Virus genome (UHGV): UHGV-1730386
Direction: 5' to 3' (one strand)
DNA from: a virus
DNA length: 14,943 nucleotides
Both the position numbers and the translations under genes were made by a program. Below the pieces are notes generated by a model. That model made no database searches, was not told the DNA's origin, and was given only the letters and a program-made list of their open reading frames with translations. Below, piece by piece: positions 1,005 through 10,426 of this stretch (its first letter is position 1; the number at the start of each line of letters is the position of its first letter).

Positions 1005-1207
1005 TTTCTCTTCCCACCAATTTCTACATCAATAACTTGCACATCATCATCCACATCAAACTTATGGATAACATTCTCTACAGTGTACATCCAACCATCA
1101 ATCCTTACCCATTCACCTTCTCGTGGCACTATTGGGTTACGTTGGGCAACTGTAGTAGTTGAGTGTATAACGTCATAAAGGTGTATATAATTTACTAAAA
1201 CTTGCAT
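1001..1207 (-). CDS. hypothetical protein (68 aa)
   Basis: ATG-initiated ORF in the leftward gene string. Its stop overlaps the ligase start codon (ATGA at 1001..1004), suggesting translational coupling. No recognisable motif. Confidence 0.5.
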   Translation of the reverse strand: MQVLVNYIHLYDVIHSTTTVAQRNPIVPREGEWVRIDGWMYTVENVIHKFDVDDDVQVIDVEIGGKRK

Positions 1208-1894: not shown

Positions 1895-1923
1895 ATGGTA
1901 CTCTTCCATGAGCACCTTGTCAA
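1895..1923 (-). promoter_or_regulatory. candidate sigma70-like promoter (TTGACA-N17-TACCAT) just downstream of the DNA polymerase stop, reading leftward
   Basis: On the minus strand: TTGACA (plus 1918..1923), a 17-nt spacer, then TACCAT (plus 1895..1900), followed by an AT-rich leader and the AGGAG RBS of ORF 1667..1867. Sequence match only. Confidence 0.25.
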
Positions 1924-4628: not shown

Positions 4629-4887
4629 TTTAACTCCCTCTCAAATCATACTGCTTAATACCCTACTCCAATTTTTATGAAAAAGCAAGTTGACAAAGCA
4701 CTTGACAAGGTGTTAATCTTTGCGGAGTGGGTTTTATCTTAATAGACTCTCTTTACAGGTTAACTATACAGATTCTTTAAAACCCTTAAAAGATTTTTAA
4801 TAGCCTTTTAAAAGCTTTAAAGTTATACGTATAGAATACGTAAAGATAAGAGATTAAAATCTTTATAGAAACTTAGTAGAGGCAATT
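4629..4887. promoter_or_regulatory. AT-rich divergent intergenic control region between the leftward polymerase block and the rightward block
   Basis: 259 bp of non-coding DNA flanked by divergent start codons at 4628 (-) and 4888 (+). Contains tandem TTGACAA heptamers (4690..4696, 4702..4708), perfect palindromes CTTTTAAAAG (4805..4814), CTTTAAAG (4815..4822) and TATACGTATA (4824..4833), and a possible leftward promoter (GGTTAA 4758..4763 and ATCTTA 4736..4741 on plus, i.e. TTAACC-N16-TAAGAT on minus). Confidence 0.45.
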
Positions 4888-6924: not shown

Positions 6925-7116
6925 ATGAGAGATAATAACTTGAAAGTTGTTGACCACCGTAGTGTAGAACTCTCATCTCTTTCTAAAGAAGTAATGATGG
7001 AGCGACTTGAAAGGGTCGCTTCTCGTCGGAAAGAGATTGCAGAAGAAATTCATGAATTAGATAAGATTGAGAATGGTCTTAAAGCAGAACTGCGTCGTAG
7101 AGGTGTAAATGGCTAA
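6925..7116 (+). CDS. hypothetical small charged/coiled-coil protein (63 aa)
   Basis: The track ORF starts at TTG 6919; I use the ATG at 6925. Sequence is Glu/Lys/Arg-rich and heptad-like. Its stop overlaps the primase-helicase start (ATGGCTAA, 7109..7116). Confidence 0.45.
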   Translation: MRDNNLKVVDHRSVELSSLSKEVMMERLERVASRRKEIAEEIHELDKIENGLKAELRRRGVNG

Positions 7117-9097
7117 ACCAAGAAAATTGAAAGAAGCTGGTCAATTTGTAGGTCATTGTGCATGTCCTAAATGTGATTCTTCAGATGCAGGTTCAATTTA
7201 TCATCACGACGACGACTCATATTCAATGACTTGTTTTAGTTGTGGTAAAGGTTTTCCAGAGTGGGATTTTGATAAAGGTCAAATTGTGAGCACAATGTCC
7301 ACAGGTTCTGATAGTAAAAATCGTAAGTTTCGTGGTATGGATTTAGATGATGTTAAAGAAAACCTCGAAGCAATGGATTTAAAAGACAGGAAGATTCCTG
7401 CAAAGGTTTTAGAACGTCTTGGTATTAAAGTTGACGTAGATGAGAATGGAGATATTGACGCTCATTTCTATCCAACTTATAAGAAGGATGAAGATGGGAA
7501 ATTGAAGCATGTTGGTTATCGAGTTCGTCACAAATACCCTGATGACCACCCTAAAGAACAGCTTCGTGGTAAGTTAAAAGACTTCTCAGGCGGTGTAGGT
7601 GATATTAAAGGTGAACTGGCGATGTTCGGTTCATGGATTGCACCTGAAGGTGGTAATCGCTTATTCATCTGGGAAGGTGAGATGGAATGTGCTACAGCAG
7701 TCTATATGACTTCTTTAGCAATTAAGGATAAGTCACGTAGAAAGAACTACTGTCACGTATCTGTCCCATCTGGTGCAAACGTTAAGTCTATCAAGGAGAA
7801 CTATCAGTACATCACATCCTTTGATGAGATTTACCTTTGCTTCGACAACGATGAAGCAGGTGCTAAGGTAACTAAGGAAGCTGCTGGTATCCTTCCTATT
7901 GAAAAGGTTCGACTGTTCCAGTATCCTGAAGGTGTTAAAGACCTTAGCGAGTGGTGGACTAAATTCTTTAAAGACAAAGATACAGTCTTAGAAGGGTTTA
8001 AGCAGAGAATCTATAATGCACCTCGTTACTGCCCTGCTGGTATTAAGAACTTTGCAGACGGTTTCGAAGCAATGAAGAATCGTGGTCAGATTCCTTTGAT
8101 TCCTTTTCCAGAATCTTTCGGGGATTTGAACAAGTTAACTTATGGTGGTTATGGGTTAGGCGAAATCACTACACTGGCTGCACCGTCATCTGTTGGTAAA
8201 TCTGCCTATACTCGTGAAATGATTTATACAGCATGGAAAGATACTGAGTACAACATTGGTGTAATTCCTGTAGAAGATACTTACGAAGAACTTATGGAAA
8301 TGCTCTGTGCAATCCATCTAAGTAAGCAGATTTCAGAGATTCCTTACGATGAGCGAGATTGGGATGAGCTAAAAGGAGCACATGCGGATTTGTCAAAAGG
8401 TCGTCGTATTCACATCGTAGACCATCAAGGGGCAATTGACCAAGACAACTTGCTAGAATTTGTTGACTATCTTGTTAACAGTCTTGATTGTAAGATTATC
8501 ATCCTTGACCCAATTACATTGGCTTTGTCACGCTCTGATACTGACGAAGAAGAAGTCCTGTCTGAACTGTTGCGTCGTTGCAAGCGTTATCAGTATGCTC
8601 AGGTAAACGTATGTCACGTTCGTAAGAGCGCAGGTGGTCAGAAAGCTAACTCTGAAGGTGGAGATATCTCTGAAGAAGATATCAAGGGTTCTGGTGCATA
8701 CTTCCAGATTTCTATGAACAACATTTTGTTAATGCGCAACAAGGTTGACCCAGACCCTGTTAAGAAAAACTTGACAAAAATCAAGTTAACTAAATGTCGT
8801 CGTCATGGTAAATCCACTGGTATTGCTGGTCACACTTGGTATAATCCAGAAACAGGCCGTCTTATCAAGGCTGCTGGTTGTGGTGTTGATATTGATGGTG
8901 CAGCAGAGAATATCCGTCAGCAGTATGGTATTGGTGATGCTGAAGACCATTACGATGATACCATGCCACACTATGAAGATGAAGCATTTGACCGTGATAC
9001 TGGAGAGTTGTATACTCAAGAGCAACGTCAGAGTTCTACAATTCCTCCTGCAATCAATGAGGATGGTGATGATGACTGCCCGTTTGAAACTGACTGA
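7109..9097 (+). CDS. bifunctional DNA primase-helicase (T7 gp4-like: zinc ribbon, TOPRIM primase, DnaB-family helicase)
   Basis: 662 aa. N-terminal zinc ribbon CACPKCDS...CFSCGKG. TOPRIM acidic motifs WEGEMECA and CFDNDEAG. Helicase Walker A AAPSSVGKSAY and Walker B IIILDPIT. Acidic C-terminus ending DDDCPFETD. Confidence 0.9.
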   Translation: MAKPRKLKEAGQFVGHCACPKCDSSDAGSIYHHDDDSYSMTCFSCGKGFPEWDFDKGQIVSTMSTGSDSKNRKFRGMDLDDVKENLEAMDLKDRKIPAKVLERLGIKVDVDENGDIDAHFYPTYKKDEDGKLKHVGYRVRHKYPDDHPKEQLRGKLKDFSGGVGDIKGELAMFGSWIAPEGGNRLFIWEGEMECATAVYMTSLAIKDKSRRKNYCHVSVPSGANVKSIKENYQYITSFDEIYLCFDNDEAGAKVTKEAAGILPIEKVRLFQYPEGVKDLSEWWTKFFKDKDTVLEGFKQRIYNAPRYCPAGIKNFADGFEAMKNRGQIPLIPFPESFGDLNKLTYGGYGLGEITTLAAPSSVGKSAYTREMIYTAWKDTEYNIGVIPVEDTYEELMEMLCAIHLSKQISEIPYDERDWDELKGAHADLSKGRRIHIVDHQGAIDQDNLLEFVDYLVNSLDCKIIILDPITLALSRSDTDEEEVLSELLRRCKRYQYAQVNVCHVRKSAGGQKANSEGGDISEEDIKGSGAYFQISMNNILLMRNKVDPDPVKKNLTKIKLTKCRRHGKSTGIAGHTWYNPETGRLIKAAGCGVDIDGAAENIRQQYGIGDAEDHYDDTMPHYEDEAFDRDTGELYTQEQRQSSTIPPAINEDGDDDCPFETD

Positions 9098-9350
9098 TAG
9101 TTATCTGAAGGAGGGCATCACGCCCTTCTATTCAGAAAATAGCACTAAAAAATTTGCAAAAGATTGCTTGACTAAGATTGAAGAGTTCGCTAAAGTACTA
9201 ATCAACAAGGGGCATGATGTTACTTATGAACATGAAAGCCGTGAAGATAAAGACTTGTTTGCACTGTCAATTGACAAAGCTGAAACAATTTATCTTTTTA
9301 CCTTGACTTTAAAAACATTTGAATATGAAATATATCGGAGCACAAAATGA
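9072..9350 (+). CDS. hypothetical protein (about 92 aa; start uncertain, overlaps the primase-helicase 3' end)
   Basis: The frame is open from inside the helicase gene to TGA 9348..9350. The only ATGs are at 9057/9063/9069/9072, before the helicase stop; GAGGA at 9060..9064 sits upstream of 9072. Its stop overlaps the next ATG (ATGA at 9347..9350). The track ORF 8805..9350 is an over-extension. Confidence 0.3.
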   Translation: MTARLKLTDSYLKEGITPFYSENSTKKFAKDCLTKIEEFAKVLINKGHDVTYEHESREDKDLFALSIDKAETIYLFTLTLKTFEYEIYRSTK

Positions 9351-9484
9351 AACACTCTAAAGCATTTGAAGCAGTATTTGGAGATTCCCTGAAAGCAACT
9401 GCTGGTAAGTCTGCTGAACATTACAAAACGAAGCGAGTTCGCACTGGTAAGACTGCTCGTAAAGCTGCCAAGAAAGCTGCTTAA
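9347..9484 (+). CDS. hypothetical small Lys/Ala-rich basic protein (45 aa)
   Basis: MKHSKAFEAVFGDSLKATAGKSAEHYKTKRVRTGKTARKAAKKAA. GGAG at 9337..9340 lies 6 nt upstream of the ATG, which overlaps the upstream stop. Below the length cut-off of the supplied track. Confidence 0.4.
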   Translation: MKHSKAFEAVFGDSLKATAGKSAEHYKTKRVRTGKTARKAAKKAA

Positions 9485-9489
9485 AATGT

Positions 9490-9518
9490 TTGACATGGGG
9501 GTATGAAGCATGTAAGAT
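9490..9518 (+). promoter_or_regulatory. candidate sigma70-like promoter upstream of the SSB-like gene (TTGACA-N17-TAAGAT)
   Basis: Perfect -35 TTGACA at 9490..9495, a 17-nt spacer, then TAAGAT at 9513..9518 (4/6 to TATAAT). Downstream RBS AGAAAGAGG precedes ATG 9572. Sequence match only. Confidence 0.4.
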
Positions 9519-9571
9519 TGTACTCCCAATAAGATTTGAATTGATAGTTAATTTGAGAAAGAGGTATTAAA

Positions 9572-10426
9572 ATGTCTAAAGTTGTTAAAATGAAATCTCC
9601 GGTAGAAAAATACAACGGTAAAGAACTTGAAACTTATCGTTACCTGCTGAAAGATGTTTGGTTCTACTACTTGAATACTATTCCACGTCCTCAGAAGGGC
9701 AAGTCTGTAGACAAACATTTCCCAGGCAAAGACTGTAATTACAGCGTTTCAATTCTGGCAAAAGACGGTAACAAGCTCTTTAAAGAGTTCACCAAGTCTA
9801 AAAAAAATCCAGATGGTTGGGATAAGGTCACTACAGAGACTGTTGATGCAGATGACTTTGAAGAGAAGTTTGGTTGTGAGCCTCCATTCGAAGCTGACAC
9901 TTATTACATCCTGAAGGTTAGCCGTTCAGCAGCTTACAAAGATGGTGCTGTATGGTCAGCAAAACAGAGTTTCCCTGTGATGCTGGTTGAAGAACTGAAC
10001 GGTAAACGTGTTGCGGTTAAGCAACCTATGAAGAAAATTAAGGCAGCAAAATCTGACAAGCATGACGATGACAAGACTTACGATGTTGTCTGTCCAGATA
10101 TTGCAGTCGGTAATGGTTCTTTTGGTAGTGTGATTCTTTCGACTCACTTCTACACCTTCGAAGGTAACGTTCTAACTAAGCCAATTCAGGAGCAGTTTAT
10201 CATTGATACTCTGGTTCCATACACTGGTGGTACTGGTGGTGCAACCGAGACTGAACTTGATGAAGACGAACTGGCACTGCTTGGTCTCGCAGGTGTTGAA
10301 GACAACGGTGAAATCTCTGAAGAAGATGCAAAAGATTCTGATGATGATAAAGGTGGTGACGACGATGACGACGACCTGCCAACACCGGATGATGACGACG
10401 AAGACTTCGAGACTGACGACGAATAA
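9572..10426 (+). CDS. putative single-stranded DNA-binding protein with acidic C-terminal tail (T7 gp2.5-like architecture)
   Basis: 284 aa with a long poly-Asp/Glu tail ending DDDDDDLPTPDDDDEDFETDDE. Sits between primase-helicase and exonuclease, as in T7-like replication modules. Has the best promoter-like sequence in the window upstream and a terminator downstream. Call rests on architecture and position, not on sequence identity. Confidence 0.5.
   Translation: MSKVVKMKSPVEKYNGKELETYRYLLKDVWFYYLNTIPRPQKGKSVDKHFPGKDCNYSVSILAKDGNKLFKEFTKSKKNPDGWDKVTTETVDADDFEEKFGCEPPFEADTYYILKVSRSAAYKDGAVWSAKQSFPVMLVEELNGKRVAVKQPMKKIKAAKSDKHDDDKTYDVVCPDIAVGNGSFGSVILSTHFYTFEGNVLTKPIQEQFIIDTLVPYTGGTGGATETELDEDELALLGLAGVEDNGEISEEDAKDSDDDKGGDDDDDDLPTPDDDDEDFETDDE

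Follow-up and report, generated by a model that had tools for sequence, protein, structure and literature searches.

An open frame behind the primase/helicase gene of a Felix O1-like phage is very probably a homologue of Felix O1 gene 102

The open frame that follows the primase/helicase gene in the 14,943-nt stretch of phage DNA analysed here (the window) is very probably a real protein-coding gene. Comparison with related genomes points to a gene of 92 codons (9072..9350) that is homologous to Felix O1 gene 102, belongs to the early replication block, and starts inside the helicase gene. An earlier note on this DNA had described the frame as lacking an independent start codon and had offered two readings, a gene that begins within the helicase coding sequence or a non-coding stretch that carries promoter-like elements. 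The first reading is borne out by a conserved ATG and Shine-Dalgarno sequence 26 nt before the helicase stop, and by a frame that is constrained in relatives. The non-coding part of the second is refuted by this constraint, and among its promoter-like hexamers only the one at 9168 has both a −10 partner at 17 nt and conservation. The source phage is a Mooglevirus (Ounavirinae, Felix O1-like), and the window shares 99.5% identity with Shigella phage ESh22. The following features surround the end of the helicase gene:

7109..9097, + strand: DNA primase/helicase gene, 662 aa (from the ORF list; PHROG 239, E 3e-180; Pfam Toprim_2 and DnaB_C)
9072..9350, + strand: very probable 92-codon gene plus TGA, MTARLKLTDSYLKEGITPFY...FEYEIYRSTK, homologue of Felix O1 gene 102 and PHROG 4982
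9072..9097, + strand: dual-coding overlap of 26 nt, with the helicase tail ...DDCPFETD-stop against MTARLKLTD in the +1 frame
9337..9340, + strand: GGAG Shine-Dalgarno sequence of the 45-codon gene, formed from the CGG AGx codons of the small gene (CGG is Arg91)
9347..9484, + strand: next small gene, 45 aa, homologue of Felix O1 gene 103 (PHROG 4424, E 4e-27)

The helicase ORF (7109..9097) ends in tandem stops, TGA at 9095..9097, where the earlier note had placed it, and TAG at 9098..9100. As had also been claimed, one frame (codons at n mod 3 = 0) then stays open to TGA 9348..9350, for 83 sense codons beyond the helicase stop, and our reading of the sequence confirms that it holds no ATG past 9097. 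At this composition an 84-codon stop-free run has a chance probability of ∼0.0034, and 83 codons without an internal Met are nothing unusual (P ∼0.12–0.21). The ATGs reported inside the helicase 3′ end are present, at 9057, 9063, 9069 and 9072, with a GTG in frame at 9066. They are not the only ones, as had been stated: the frame is open back to 8790 in the window, with more ATGs at 8805 to 8979. These are immaterial, because relatives show that only the ATGs of 9057..9072 matter.

Other gene pairs in the window overlap by 4, 8, 11 and 20 nt; at 26 nt, the present overlap is long for the window. Since overlaps of 8–20 nt are common among neighbouring genes here, the apparent anomaly of a frame lacking an independent start codon dissolves. 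At the other end of the small gene, its stop and the start of the 45-codon gene overlap as ATGA, a junction present in 32 of 35 distinct sequences. The Arg91 CGG codon is invariant in all relatives, and the GGAG to which it contributes has a duplex energy of −5.8 kcal/mol at a spacing of 5. A homologue of the 45-codon gene is also next in Yersinia phage P778. A 284-aa gene starts at 9572, past the sole real intergenic gap.

Conservation and coding constraint

Among relatives the frame is conserved, has the correct boundaries and is under constraint. We read 46 related loci, corresponding to 35 distinct region sequences with the window counted among them; 18 of these loci were examined first, and the wider set of 35 spans three genera (Mooglevirus, Suspvirus and Felixounavirus). 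A tblastn search with the product of the 92-codon gene returned 253 phage records (34–100% identity), 251 of which cover at least 80% of the protein, and the primase/helicase adjoins the homologue in all 253 without exception. The position after the primase/helicase and before a gp103-like gene of 45–49 aa is kept in the annotation tables of 15 relatives, the primase/helicase annotation being common to the ESh22, Moogle and Felix O1 gp101 counterparts. The corresponding CDS is annotated in ESh22 (URY12819), Moogle (gp30), SUSP1 (agp052), Sf15 (gp48), Mordin, Alf5, HY02 and Felix O1; records that leave the small gene unannotated include KhF2, BPSELC-1 and Si3.

A frame of 92 or 93 codons is kept in 32 of the 35 distinct sequences across the three genera. 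The three exceptions comprise two single nonsense changes and one frameshift, so either the small gene may be dispensable or these three broken-frame assemblies may contain errors. Synonymous divergence is saturated between genera, and length differences are whole codons. The earlier note had named synonymous-site variation free of coding constraint as evidence against a gene; what we found within genera is a pN/pS of 0.43 in the small-gene frame, and thus constraint, versus 0.78 and 1.12 in the shifted frames. Within-genus differences number 405, 268 and 657 at codon positions 1, 2 and 3, with third-position changes dominating. The dN/dS ratio is below 1 in 116 of 116 pairs, with a median of about 0.5 that corresponds to moderate purifying selection. 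The middle of the protein is fast-evolving and the N-terminal 30 residues are best conserved. Codon usage, which the earlier note had proposed examining together with conservation and related genomes, agrees: this is the only frame with a positive score (+12.6 bits, 0 stops), versus −33 to −86 bits and 4–14 stops in the other five.

Start site and route of expression

Two Shine-Dalgarno-like sequences bear on where the gene starts:

9059..9063, + strand: GAGGA, predicted Shine-Dalgarno sequence of the small gene, lying within the helicase gene (from duplex energy with the 16S 3′ end)
9108..9114, + strand: AAGGAGG, codons 13–15 of the small gene (AAG GAG GGC, Lys-Glu-Gly)

The ATG at 9072 is the best-supported start. 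All 46 related loci (35 distinct region sequences) begin with ATGACTG, and amino-acid conservation begins exactly at Met-Thr. The overlap motif ATGACTG[CT]CC[GA]TT[TC]GAAACTGA is nearly invariant in the three genera, with codons 2, 6 and 7 of the small gene codon-invariant. The small ORF is bounded upstream in relatives, because, among the 18 loci examined first, an in-frame stop lies 12–18 nt before the ATG in every one outside the window's lineage. This stop has been lost in the window and ESh22, so that their frame is open 280 nt further upstream, and the annotation of the start is ambiguous owing to an additional ATG at −3.

The Shine-Dalgarno duplex for ATG 9072 reaches −9.8 kcal/mol, exceeding those of the helicase gene and the 284-aa gene (−7.1 kcal/mol each); in the window's lineage GGTGA lengthens the pairing as far as 9068. 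Duplexes of −5.9 to −8.3 kcal/mol at a spacing of 4–5 occur in six relatives that represent the three genera, and a ribosome-binding site is annotated at the equivalent position in Moogle and Mordin. The start of the distant Yersinia phage P778 homologue likewise lies inside the helicase 3′ end, with a duplex of −4.2 kcal/mol at a spacing of 7. We rejected a hairpin of UCCUC (9044–9048) with the GAGGA as a conserved regulatory structure; it occurs only in the window's lineage, and other relatives have CCACC.

A real gene that starts instead at ATG 9057 or 9063, GTG 9066 or ATG 9069 is unlikely. The best of these, ATG 9069, is a possible alternative to 9072: the ESh22 annotation begins at its equivalent (a 93-aa form), its duplex of −7.9 kcal/mol is acceptable, and some database clusters begin MMT... 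or MQMT.... However, the ATG at 9072 alone is found in every relative, as Moogle and Felix O1 have no ATG at −3, and both the PHROG 4982 profile and the Felix O1 annotation begin at its equivalent. The PHROG match (E 3.1e-36) aligns residues 2–91 of the 93-aa form with positions 1–90 of 92, so that the profile begins at the residue encoded at 9072. Neither 9057 nor 9063 has a Shine-Dalgarno sequence (duplex energy above 0). In-frame TTG codons at 9168, 9255 and 9303 were also rejected as starts, since they lack a Shine-Dalgarno sequence (−1.0 kcal/mol or weaker) and the best-conserved N-terminal residues lie upstream of them.

The strong AAGGAGG was correctly described as having no usable start: no ATG, GTG or TTG follows within 5–13 nt in any frame. 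We therefore rejected it as a start signal, together with ATC 9117 and ACG 9120, which are not conserved (relatives have TTT or TTC, then ACA, ACG or GAA). Its Glu14 and Gly15 are invariant, encoded within AAG GAG GGY in Mooglevirus and Suspvirus and within AGA GAG GGG in Felixounavirus.

We propose the following route of expression. The small gene would share an early mRNA with the helicase gene, and a promoter-like site at 8988..9016 (see below) may add to its transcription. 30S subunits would initiate at ATG 9072 (less likely at 9069), guided by GAGGA 9059..9063. Ribosomes completing the helicase would keep the start site unfolded, and small-gene translation would therefore probably be coupled to that of the helicase. 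With a start 26 nt upstream of a stop, de novo Shine-Dalgarno-led initiation is likelier than termination-reinitiation. At the distal end, the ATGA overlap may pass ribosomes on to the 45-codon gene.

The frame could in principle be reached without any start of its own, by a programmed +1 ribosomal frameshift or stop readthrough yielding a C-terminally extended helicase. Because the +1 frame of both the window and ESh22 is open from 8790 onwards, a shift at any point within the final 300 nt of the helicase gene would join the two reading frames. We nonetheless judge recoding to be highly improbable: the tandem in-frame stops TGA TAG count against readthrough, and in relatives outside the window's lineage the +1-frame stop 12–18 nt before the ATG leaves hardly any space in which a shift site could be conserved. 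Inspection of 9050..9097 by eye showed no slippery or prfB-like motif, and the conserved ATG with its properly spaced Shine-Dalgarno sequence accounts for the frame without recoding.

Promoter-like elements in and around the gene

We scanned for sigma-70 consensus sequences, scoring both hexamers together out of 12. The elements relevant here are:

8988..9016, + strand: TTGACC-N17-TATACT, 10/12, within the 3′ part of the helicase gene, ∼56 nt before the ATG of the small gene
9168..9196, + strand: TTGACT-N17-TAAAGT, 9/12, inside the small gene, with the −35 over the Leu33-Thr34 codons
9490..9518, + strand: TTGACA-N17-TAAGAT, 10/12, strong sigma-70-type promoter-like element in the sole real intergenic gap, upstream of the 284-aa gene (9572)

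Promoter-like sites are not significantly enriched in 8500..10000 (6 found versus 3.0 ± 1.7 expected). The element at 8988..9016 is the counterpart of the predicted Felix O1 P102, TTGACC(N17)TATACT at 67839–67867 (Whichard et al. 2010); in Moogle and SUSP the −10 has decayed to TACACA or TACACT. Equivalents of the 9490 element read TTGACA-N17-TAAAGT in P778 and TTGACA-N17-TAGAAT in Felix O1. Among the three hexamers listed in the earlier note, the TTGACT at 9303 was placed correctly and the other two were off by one, their true starts being 9168 (TTGACT) and 9271 (TTGACA). Those at 9271 and 9303 have no −10 partner and are conserved only among close relatives, not in Felixounavirus. At 9168, 23 distinct Felixounavirus sequences have TTGACA-N17-TAGAAT (11/12) at the same position and spacing, and 10 distinct Mooglevirus and Suspvirus sequences (window included) have a −35 of TTGAC[TG] or TTGATT with TAAAGT.

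This −10-like hexamer at 17 nt, and the retention of the pair in three genera, speak for a reading of 9098..9346 as a non-coding regulatory spacer whose sigma-70 promoters (9168, 9271, 9303) serve the downstream genes. Such a spacer is very hard to reconcile with a frame intact in nearly all distinct relatives, a pN/pS that is lowest in that frame, and five other frames full of stops. The missing −10 partners at 9271 and 9303 and the unenriched site count likewise argue against it, and we regard it as extremely improbable.

If 9072..9350 is a real gene, as we favour, it could still contain a functional promoter at 9168..9196 that gives a separate transcript for the 45-codon and downstream genes. 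We consider this conceivable but doubtful. Neither the position of the two hexamers nor their 17-nt spacing differs between Mooglevirus, Suspvirus and Felixounavirus, and the −10 variants TAAAGT and TAGAAT encode A/G/C-K-V and Y-R-M, respectively, yet both fit TAnnnT. The Leu33 TTG codon is invariant though TTG makes up 22% of Leu codons in the window's genes. However, the −35 coincides with a conserved Cys-Leu-Thr (Cys and Leu invariant, Thr nearly so), and 11 of the 22 invariant residues of the small gene are also codon-invariant, so that retention of TTG is not special. Moreover, the element is absent from the distant homologue of Yersinia phage P778, and by a rough estimate, made without calculation, about one 11/12 match per genome is expected by chance.

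Protein family and relation to known phage genes

Sequence and model searches describe a narrow family. The PHROG 4982 entry carries the label ‘unknown function’. A profile built from 16 relatives retrieves 88 clusters of 91–95 aa, and an exhaustive profile search with HMMER turned up only seven among 1.84 billion cluster representatives. Members occur only in Felix O1-like phages, apart from a few distant relatives that include one in Yersinia phage P778. Searches of Pfam and NCBIfam with the small protein gave no match, and a sequence profile search of the PDB gave only AcrIIA4 at chance level (E 0.6). The AlphaFold2 model (pLDDT 80.8, pTM 0.69) is a confident one and shows a small alpha/beta fold with a beta strand, then a long helix and a four-stranded sheet; the product is probably soluble. 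Foldseek found nothing in the PDB below E 0.26, and a fold search of BFVD returned only the family's own member.

The gene itself is ordinary and already known, from GenBank records and the 2010 Felix O1 genome paper. Felix O1 gene 102 is 67920–68201, encoding 93 aa from an ATG equivalent to 9072; its product is also ORF246 of GenBank AF320576. ORFs 101 and 105, which flank gene 102, are transcribed within 5 min of Felix O1 infection. The Felix O1 helicase is closest to the T7-group gp4 (Whichard et al. 2010). A literature search found no early-phase transcriptome, proteome or TSS map for the Ounavirinae. The window's gene resembles gene 102 and its annotated homologues in identity (36–100%), length (92 or 93 aa), ATGACTG start and ATGA junction, and differs from them in nothing of substance.

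More broadly, the arrangement is that of compact phage operons, with a start and Shine-Dalgarno sequence embedded in the terminal part of the preceding same-strand gene, which is read in another frame. Out-of-frame overlapping starts and translational coupling are known from many gene pairs of T7, T4 and lambda. In T7, the small ORFs 4.1 to 4.7 lie downstream of the gene 4 primase/helicase. Here the likeness is positional only, in that small ORFs lie between a gp4-type primase/helicase and an exonuclease in the early/middle replication block; our searches found no sequence or fold similarity of the small protein to any characterised protein.

The product is most likely a non-essential early accessory protein. 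More tentatively, and with considerable doubt, we conjecture either that the small gene has a second role as a conserved internal promoter of the sigma-70 type (TTGACW-N17-TAnAnT) or that the 92-aa protein is stoichiometrically coupled to the primase/helicase as its partner or regulator. The latter idea stems from the start of the small gene being welded to the acidic C-terminal tail of the helicase, even in the distant Yersinia phage. The apparent anomaly of an open frame without its own start is what dense gene packing normally produces in a Felix O1-like phage. Beyond correct annotation the finding is of minor importance, the start being best set at the universally conserved ATG (9072 in the window). 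As a confidently foldable family restricted to Felix O1-like phages, these proteins are also candidates for functional screens of early phage proteins.

Setting and annotation of the small gene

The small gene (9072..9350, plus strand, 92 codons) has its start codon and Shine-Dalgarno sequence inside the primase/helicase gene, and its stop overlaps the start of the 45-codon gene that follows (9347..9484). The region shares 99.5% identity with Shigella phage ESh22 (Ounavirinae, Mooglevirus) and 83–85% with Moogle, Mordin, Sf13-19 and others; it matches 259 Felix O1-like records in total. A replication and nucleotide-metabolism block surrounds the small gene:

Minus strand: ligase, DNA polymerase
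Plus strand: dNMP kinase, primase/helicase, three ORFs of unknown function, exonuclease, MazG
7109..9097, plus strand: primase/helicase, 662 codons (PHROG 239, Toprim and DnaB_C)

ESh22 carries an annotated CDS equivalent to 9069..9350, and Moogle has the gene as gp30 with a ribosome-binding site. It is also annotated as overlapping the helicase end in SUSP1, PC79-13, Sf15, Mordin, Alf5, LMP33, HY02, Pr103Blw, UAB_Phi87 and Felix O1. In the Felix O1 genome paper, gene 102 is given as 67920-68201 (93 aa, pI 6.6, without a homologue); it starts at the ATG that corresponds to window position 9072. The protein matches PHROG 4982, of unknown function (E 3e-36); the start of the profile falls on the residue encoded at 9072. 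The ORF is intact but unannotated in KT184314 (KhF2), MN227145 (BPSELC-1), NC_041922 (Si3) and several other Felixounavirus records; annotation is therefore inconsistent across the subfamily.

Coding constraint and family extent

The earlier note described a frame that stays open after the helicase without a start codon of its own, and most of that description holds. The helicase stop, TGA 9095..9097, has a second in-frame stop (TAG) right behind it. The +1 frame (codons at n mod 3 = 0) stays open as far as TGA 9348..9350 and has no ATG after 9097. In-frame ATGs do lie at 9057, 9063, 9069 and 9072, but they are not the only ones, as others occur upstream, in an open stretch of this frame that reaches back to 8790. 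A GTG (9066) and three TTGs (9168, 9255, 9303) are also in frame. At the window's composition an 84-codon open run has P ∼0.0034; 83 codons without an internal Met are unremarkable (P ∼0.12–0.21). Because relatives outside the window's lineage have an in-frame stop 12–18 nt before the conserved ATG, the long upstream opening is, on this comparison, an accident of lineage.

The small protein was found by tblastn in 253 phage records, 251 of them at ≥80% coverage, with identities from 100% to 34%, and its gene always adjoins the primase/helicase. We compared 46 related loci, representing 35 distinct region sequences with the window included. The motif ATGACTGYCCRTTYGAAACTGA is universal among the 46, and 32 of the 35 sequences retain 92 or 93 codons and a terminal ATGA overlap with the next gene. 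The other three, all IMG/VR Felixounavirus contigs, are disrupted by nonsense codons at 81 (L041) and 52 (L043) or by a frameshift after codon 23 (L046), so the gene is probably dispensable, or else these assemblies contain errors. All 116 pairs have a Nei-Gojobori dN/dS under 1 (median 0.50; mostly 0.1–0.45 in close pairs). Within genera, differences fall 405, 268 and 657 times at the three codon positions, and pN/pS is 0.43 in the gene's frame versus 0.78 and 1.12 in the shifted frames, which contain 4–7 and 10–14 stops. A codon-usage score trained on the window's other genes gives +12.6 bits in this frame versus −33 to −86 bits in the five others. Yersinia phage P778 encodes a distant homologue that likewise starts within the primase/helicase 3′ end; behind it come a 45-aa gene homologue and the same promoter type.

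The earlier note had asked whether coding constraint is missing from this frame among relatives; by dN/dS, pN/pS and codon usage it is present. This comparative evidence refutes a non-coding spacer, and 9072..9350 is a real gene. A frameshift or readthrough extension of the helicase likewise finds no support: the helicase has two stops in a row, the +1 frame of relatives is closed by the upstream stop, and no slippery site is visible by eye at the helicase end.

An AlphaFold2 model of the protein (36-sequence alignment; pLDDT 80.8, pTM 0.69) predicts a strand (4–11), a helix (22–45) and four further strands (50–56, 60–67, 72–79 and 83–90). Foldseek of this model against the PDB returned nothing below E 0.26, BFVD only the family's own member, and Pfam, NCBIfam and PDB sequence searches were empty; a profile search run exhaustively over 1.84 billion representatives gave just 7 clusters. 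These searches yield no informative match, and the family is, as far as they reach, confined to Felix O1-like phages plus a few distant relatives, one in P778.

Start site and helicase overlap

The first of two readings offered earlier, a gene beginning inside the helicase coding sequence, is right: the conserved ATG and Shine-Dalgarno are found there. Translation probably starts at 9072, the only candidate present in every relative and the point where amino-acid conservation begins (Met-Thr). It has the strongest upstream pairing to the 16S 3′ end, −9.8 kcal/mol (GAGGA 9059..9063 extended by GGTGA); the helicase and the 284-aa gene each score −7.1. In six relatives checked from three genera the duplex is −5.9 to −8.3 at spacing 4–5, and in the P778 homologue −4.2 at spacing 7. 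The ATG at 9069 has a duplex of −7.9 kcal/mol, but neither Moogle nor Felix O1 has one at −3, and initiation at 9069 is quite unlikely. The 16S scoring found no Shine-Dalgarno upstream of 9057 or 9063.

The small gene and the helicase share 26 nt (29 nt from 9069), which in the other frame encode ...DDCPFETD*, the helicase tail. This arrangement is typical, as other gene pairs in the window overlap by 4, 8, 11 and 20 nt. At 9062..9100 the helicase finishes in acidic residues and a single aromatic one (DGDDDCPFETD) before TGA TAG; this tail is dual-coded with the small gene's N-terminus. T7 gp4 has a similar acidic C-terminal tail, which contacts the DNA polymerase. Near the other end of the small gene, the rare Arg codon CGG at 9336 is invariant because of the GGAG Shine-Dalgarno of the next gene.

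Promoter-like elements and expression

Indeed, no ATG, GTG or TTG stands at a usable distance from the AAGGAGG at 9108..9114, whatever the frame. We rejected it as a start signal: it encodes Lys-Glu-Gly (codons 13–15; Glu14 and Gly15 invariant), written AAG GAG GGY in Mooglevirus and Suspvirus and AGA GAG GGG in Felixounavirus. Of the hexamers reported at 9169, 9270 and 9303, all exist and the last was placed correctly; the others begin at 9168 and 9271. Neither TTGACA 9271 nor TTGACT 9303 has a −10 partner or is conserved in Felixounavirus. The promoter-like elements are:

8988..9016, plus strand: TTGACC-N17-TATACT, equal to predicted P102 of Felix O1
9168..9196, plus strand: TTGACT-N17-TAAAGT, promoter-like, inside the small gene
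9490..9528 in the window, about 1137..1180 in related locus L007 and about 1089..1135 in related locus L047: promoter-plus-inverted-repeat sites

The −10 of the 8988 element is degraded in Moogle and SUSP. An internal promoter at 9168 would explain a promoter-like pair at the same position and spacing in three genera: TTGACA-N17-TAGAAT in 23/23 distinct Felixounavirus sequences, and TTGAC[TG] or TTGATT with TAAAGT in all 10 distinct Mooglevirus and Suspvirus sequences, window included. However, the −35 covers the Leu33-Thr34 codons of a conserved Cys-Leu-Thr motif, codon invariance is common in this gene anyway (11 of its 22 invariant residues), and the P778 homologue lacks the element; such a promoter is possible but unlikely.

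A strong promoter-like site, TTGACA-N17-TAAGAT, precedes the 284-aa gene (9572..10426; PHROG 3877, unknown function, no Pfam match), which is labelled ‘methyltransferase’ in the P778 record and ‘hypothetical’ everywhere else. Arms of an inverted repeat flank its −10 hexamer (GGGGGTAC... / ...GTACTCCC; MFE −12.2 kcal/mol, z −1.5). The same architecture occurs with different sequences in Felix O1 (AGAGTATCA / TGATACTCT) and P778 (GTGAGGGTA / TACTCTCAC), so the arms covary, which suggests a conserved promoter-plus-stem-loop unit. Two copies of TTGACAAGGTG on opposite strands, 1913..1923 (minus) and 4702..4712 (plus), may be further promoters of the TTGACA-NGGGG type found at 9490 (3 matches observed, 0.6 expected). 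One copy sits in the divergent intergenic region that separates the DNA polymerase gene from the plus-strand genes; the other follows shortly downstream of the polymerase gene.

The small gene is an ordinary, already annotated gene; what looked like a ‘missing start codon’ is an out-of-frame overlap of the normal kind. We infer that the gene shares an early transcript with the helicase; in Felix O1 the flanking ORFs 101 and 105 are transcribed within 5 min of infection. Initiation at 9072 would be Shine-Dalgarno-directed, probably helped by helicase-translating ribosomes holding the site open, and termination-reinitiation at the ATGA junction would pass ribosomes to the 45-codon gene. In the 9043..9063 region, a short hairpin can form between UUCCUCC (helicase Ile-Pro-Pro codons) and the GAGGA Shine-Dalgarno; CCTCC occurs only in the window's own lineage, with CCACC in other relatives. 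This hairpin would tie translation of the small gene to ribosomes reading the helicase.
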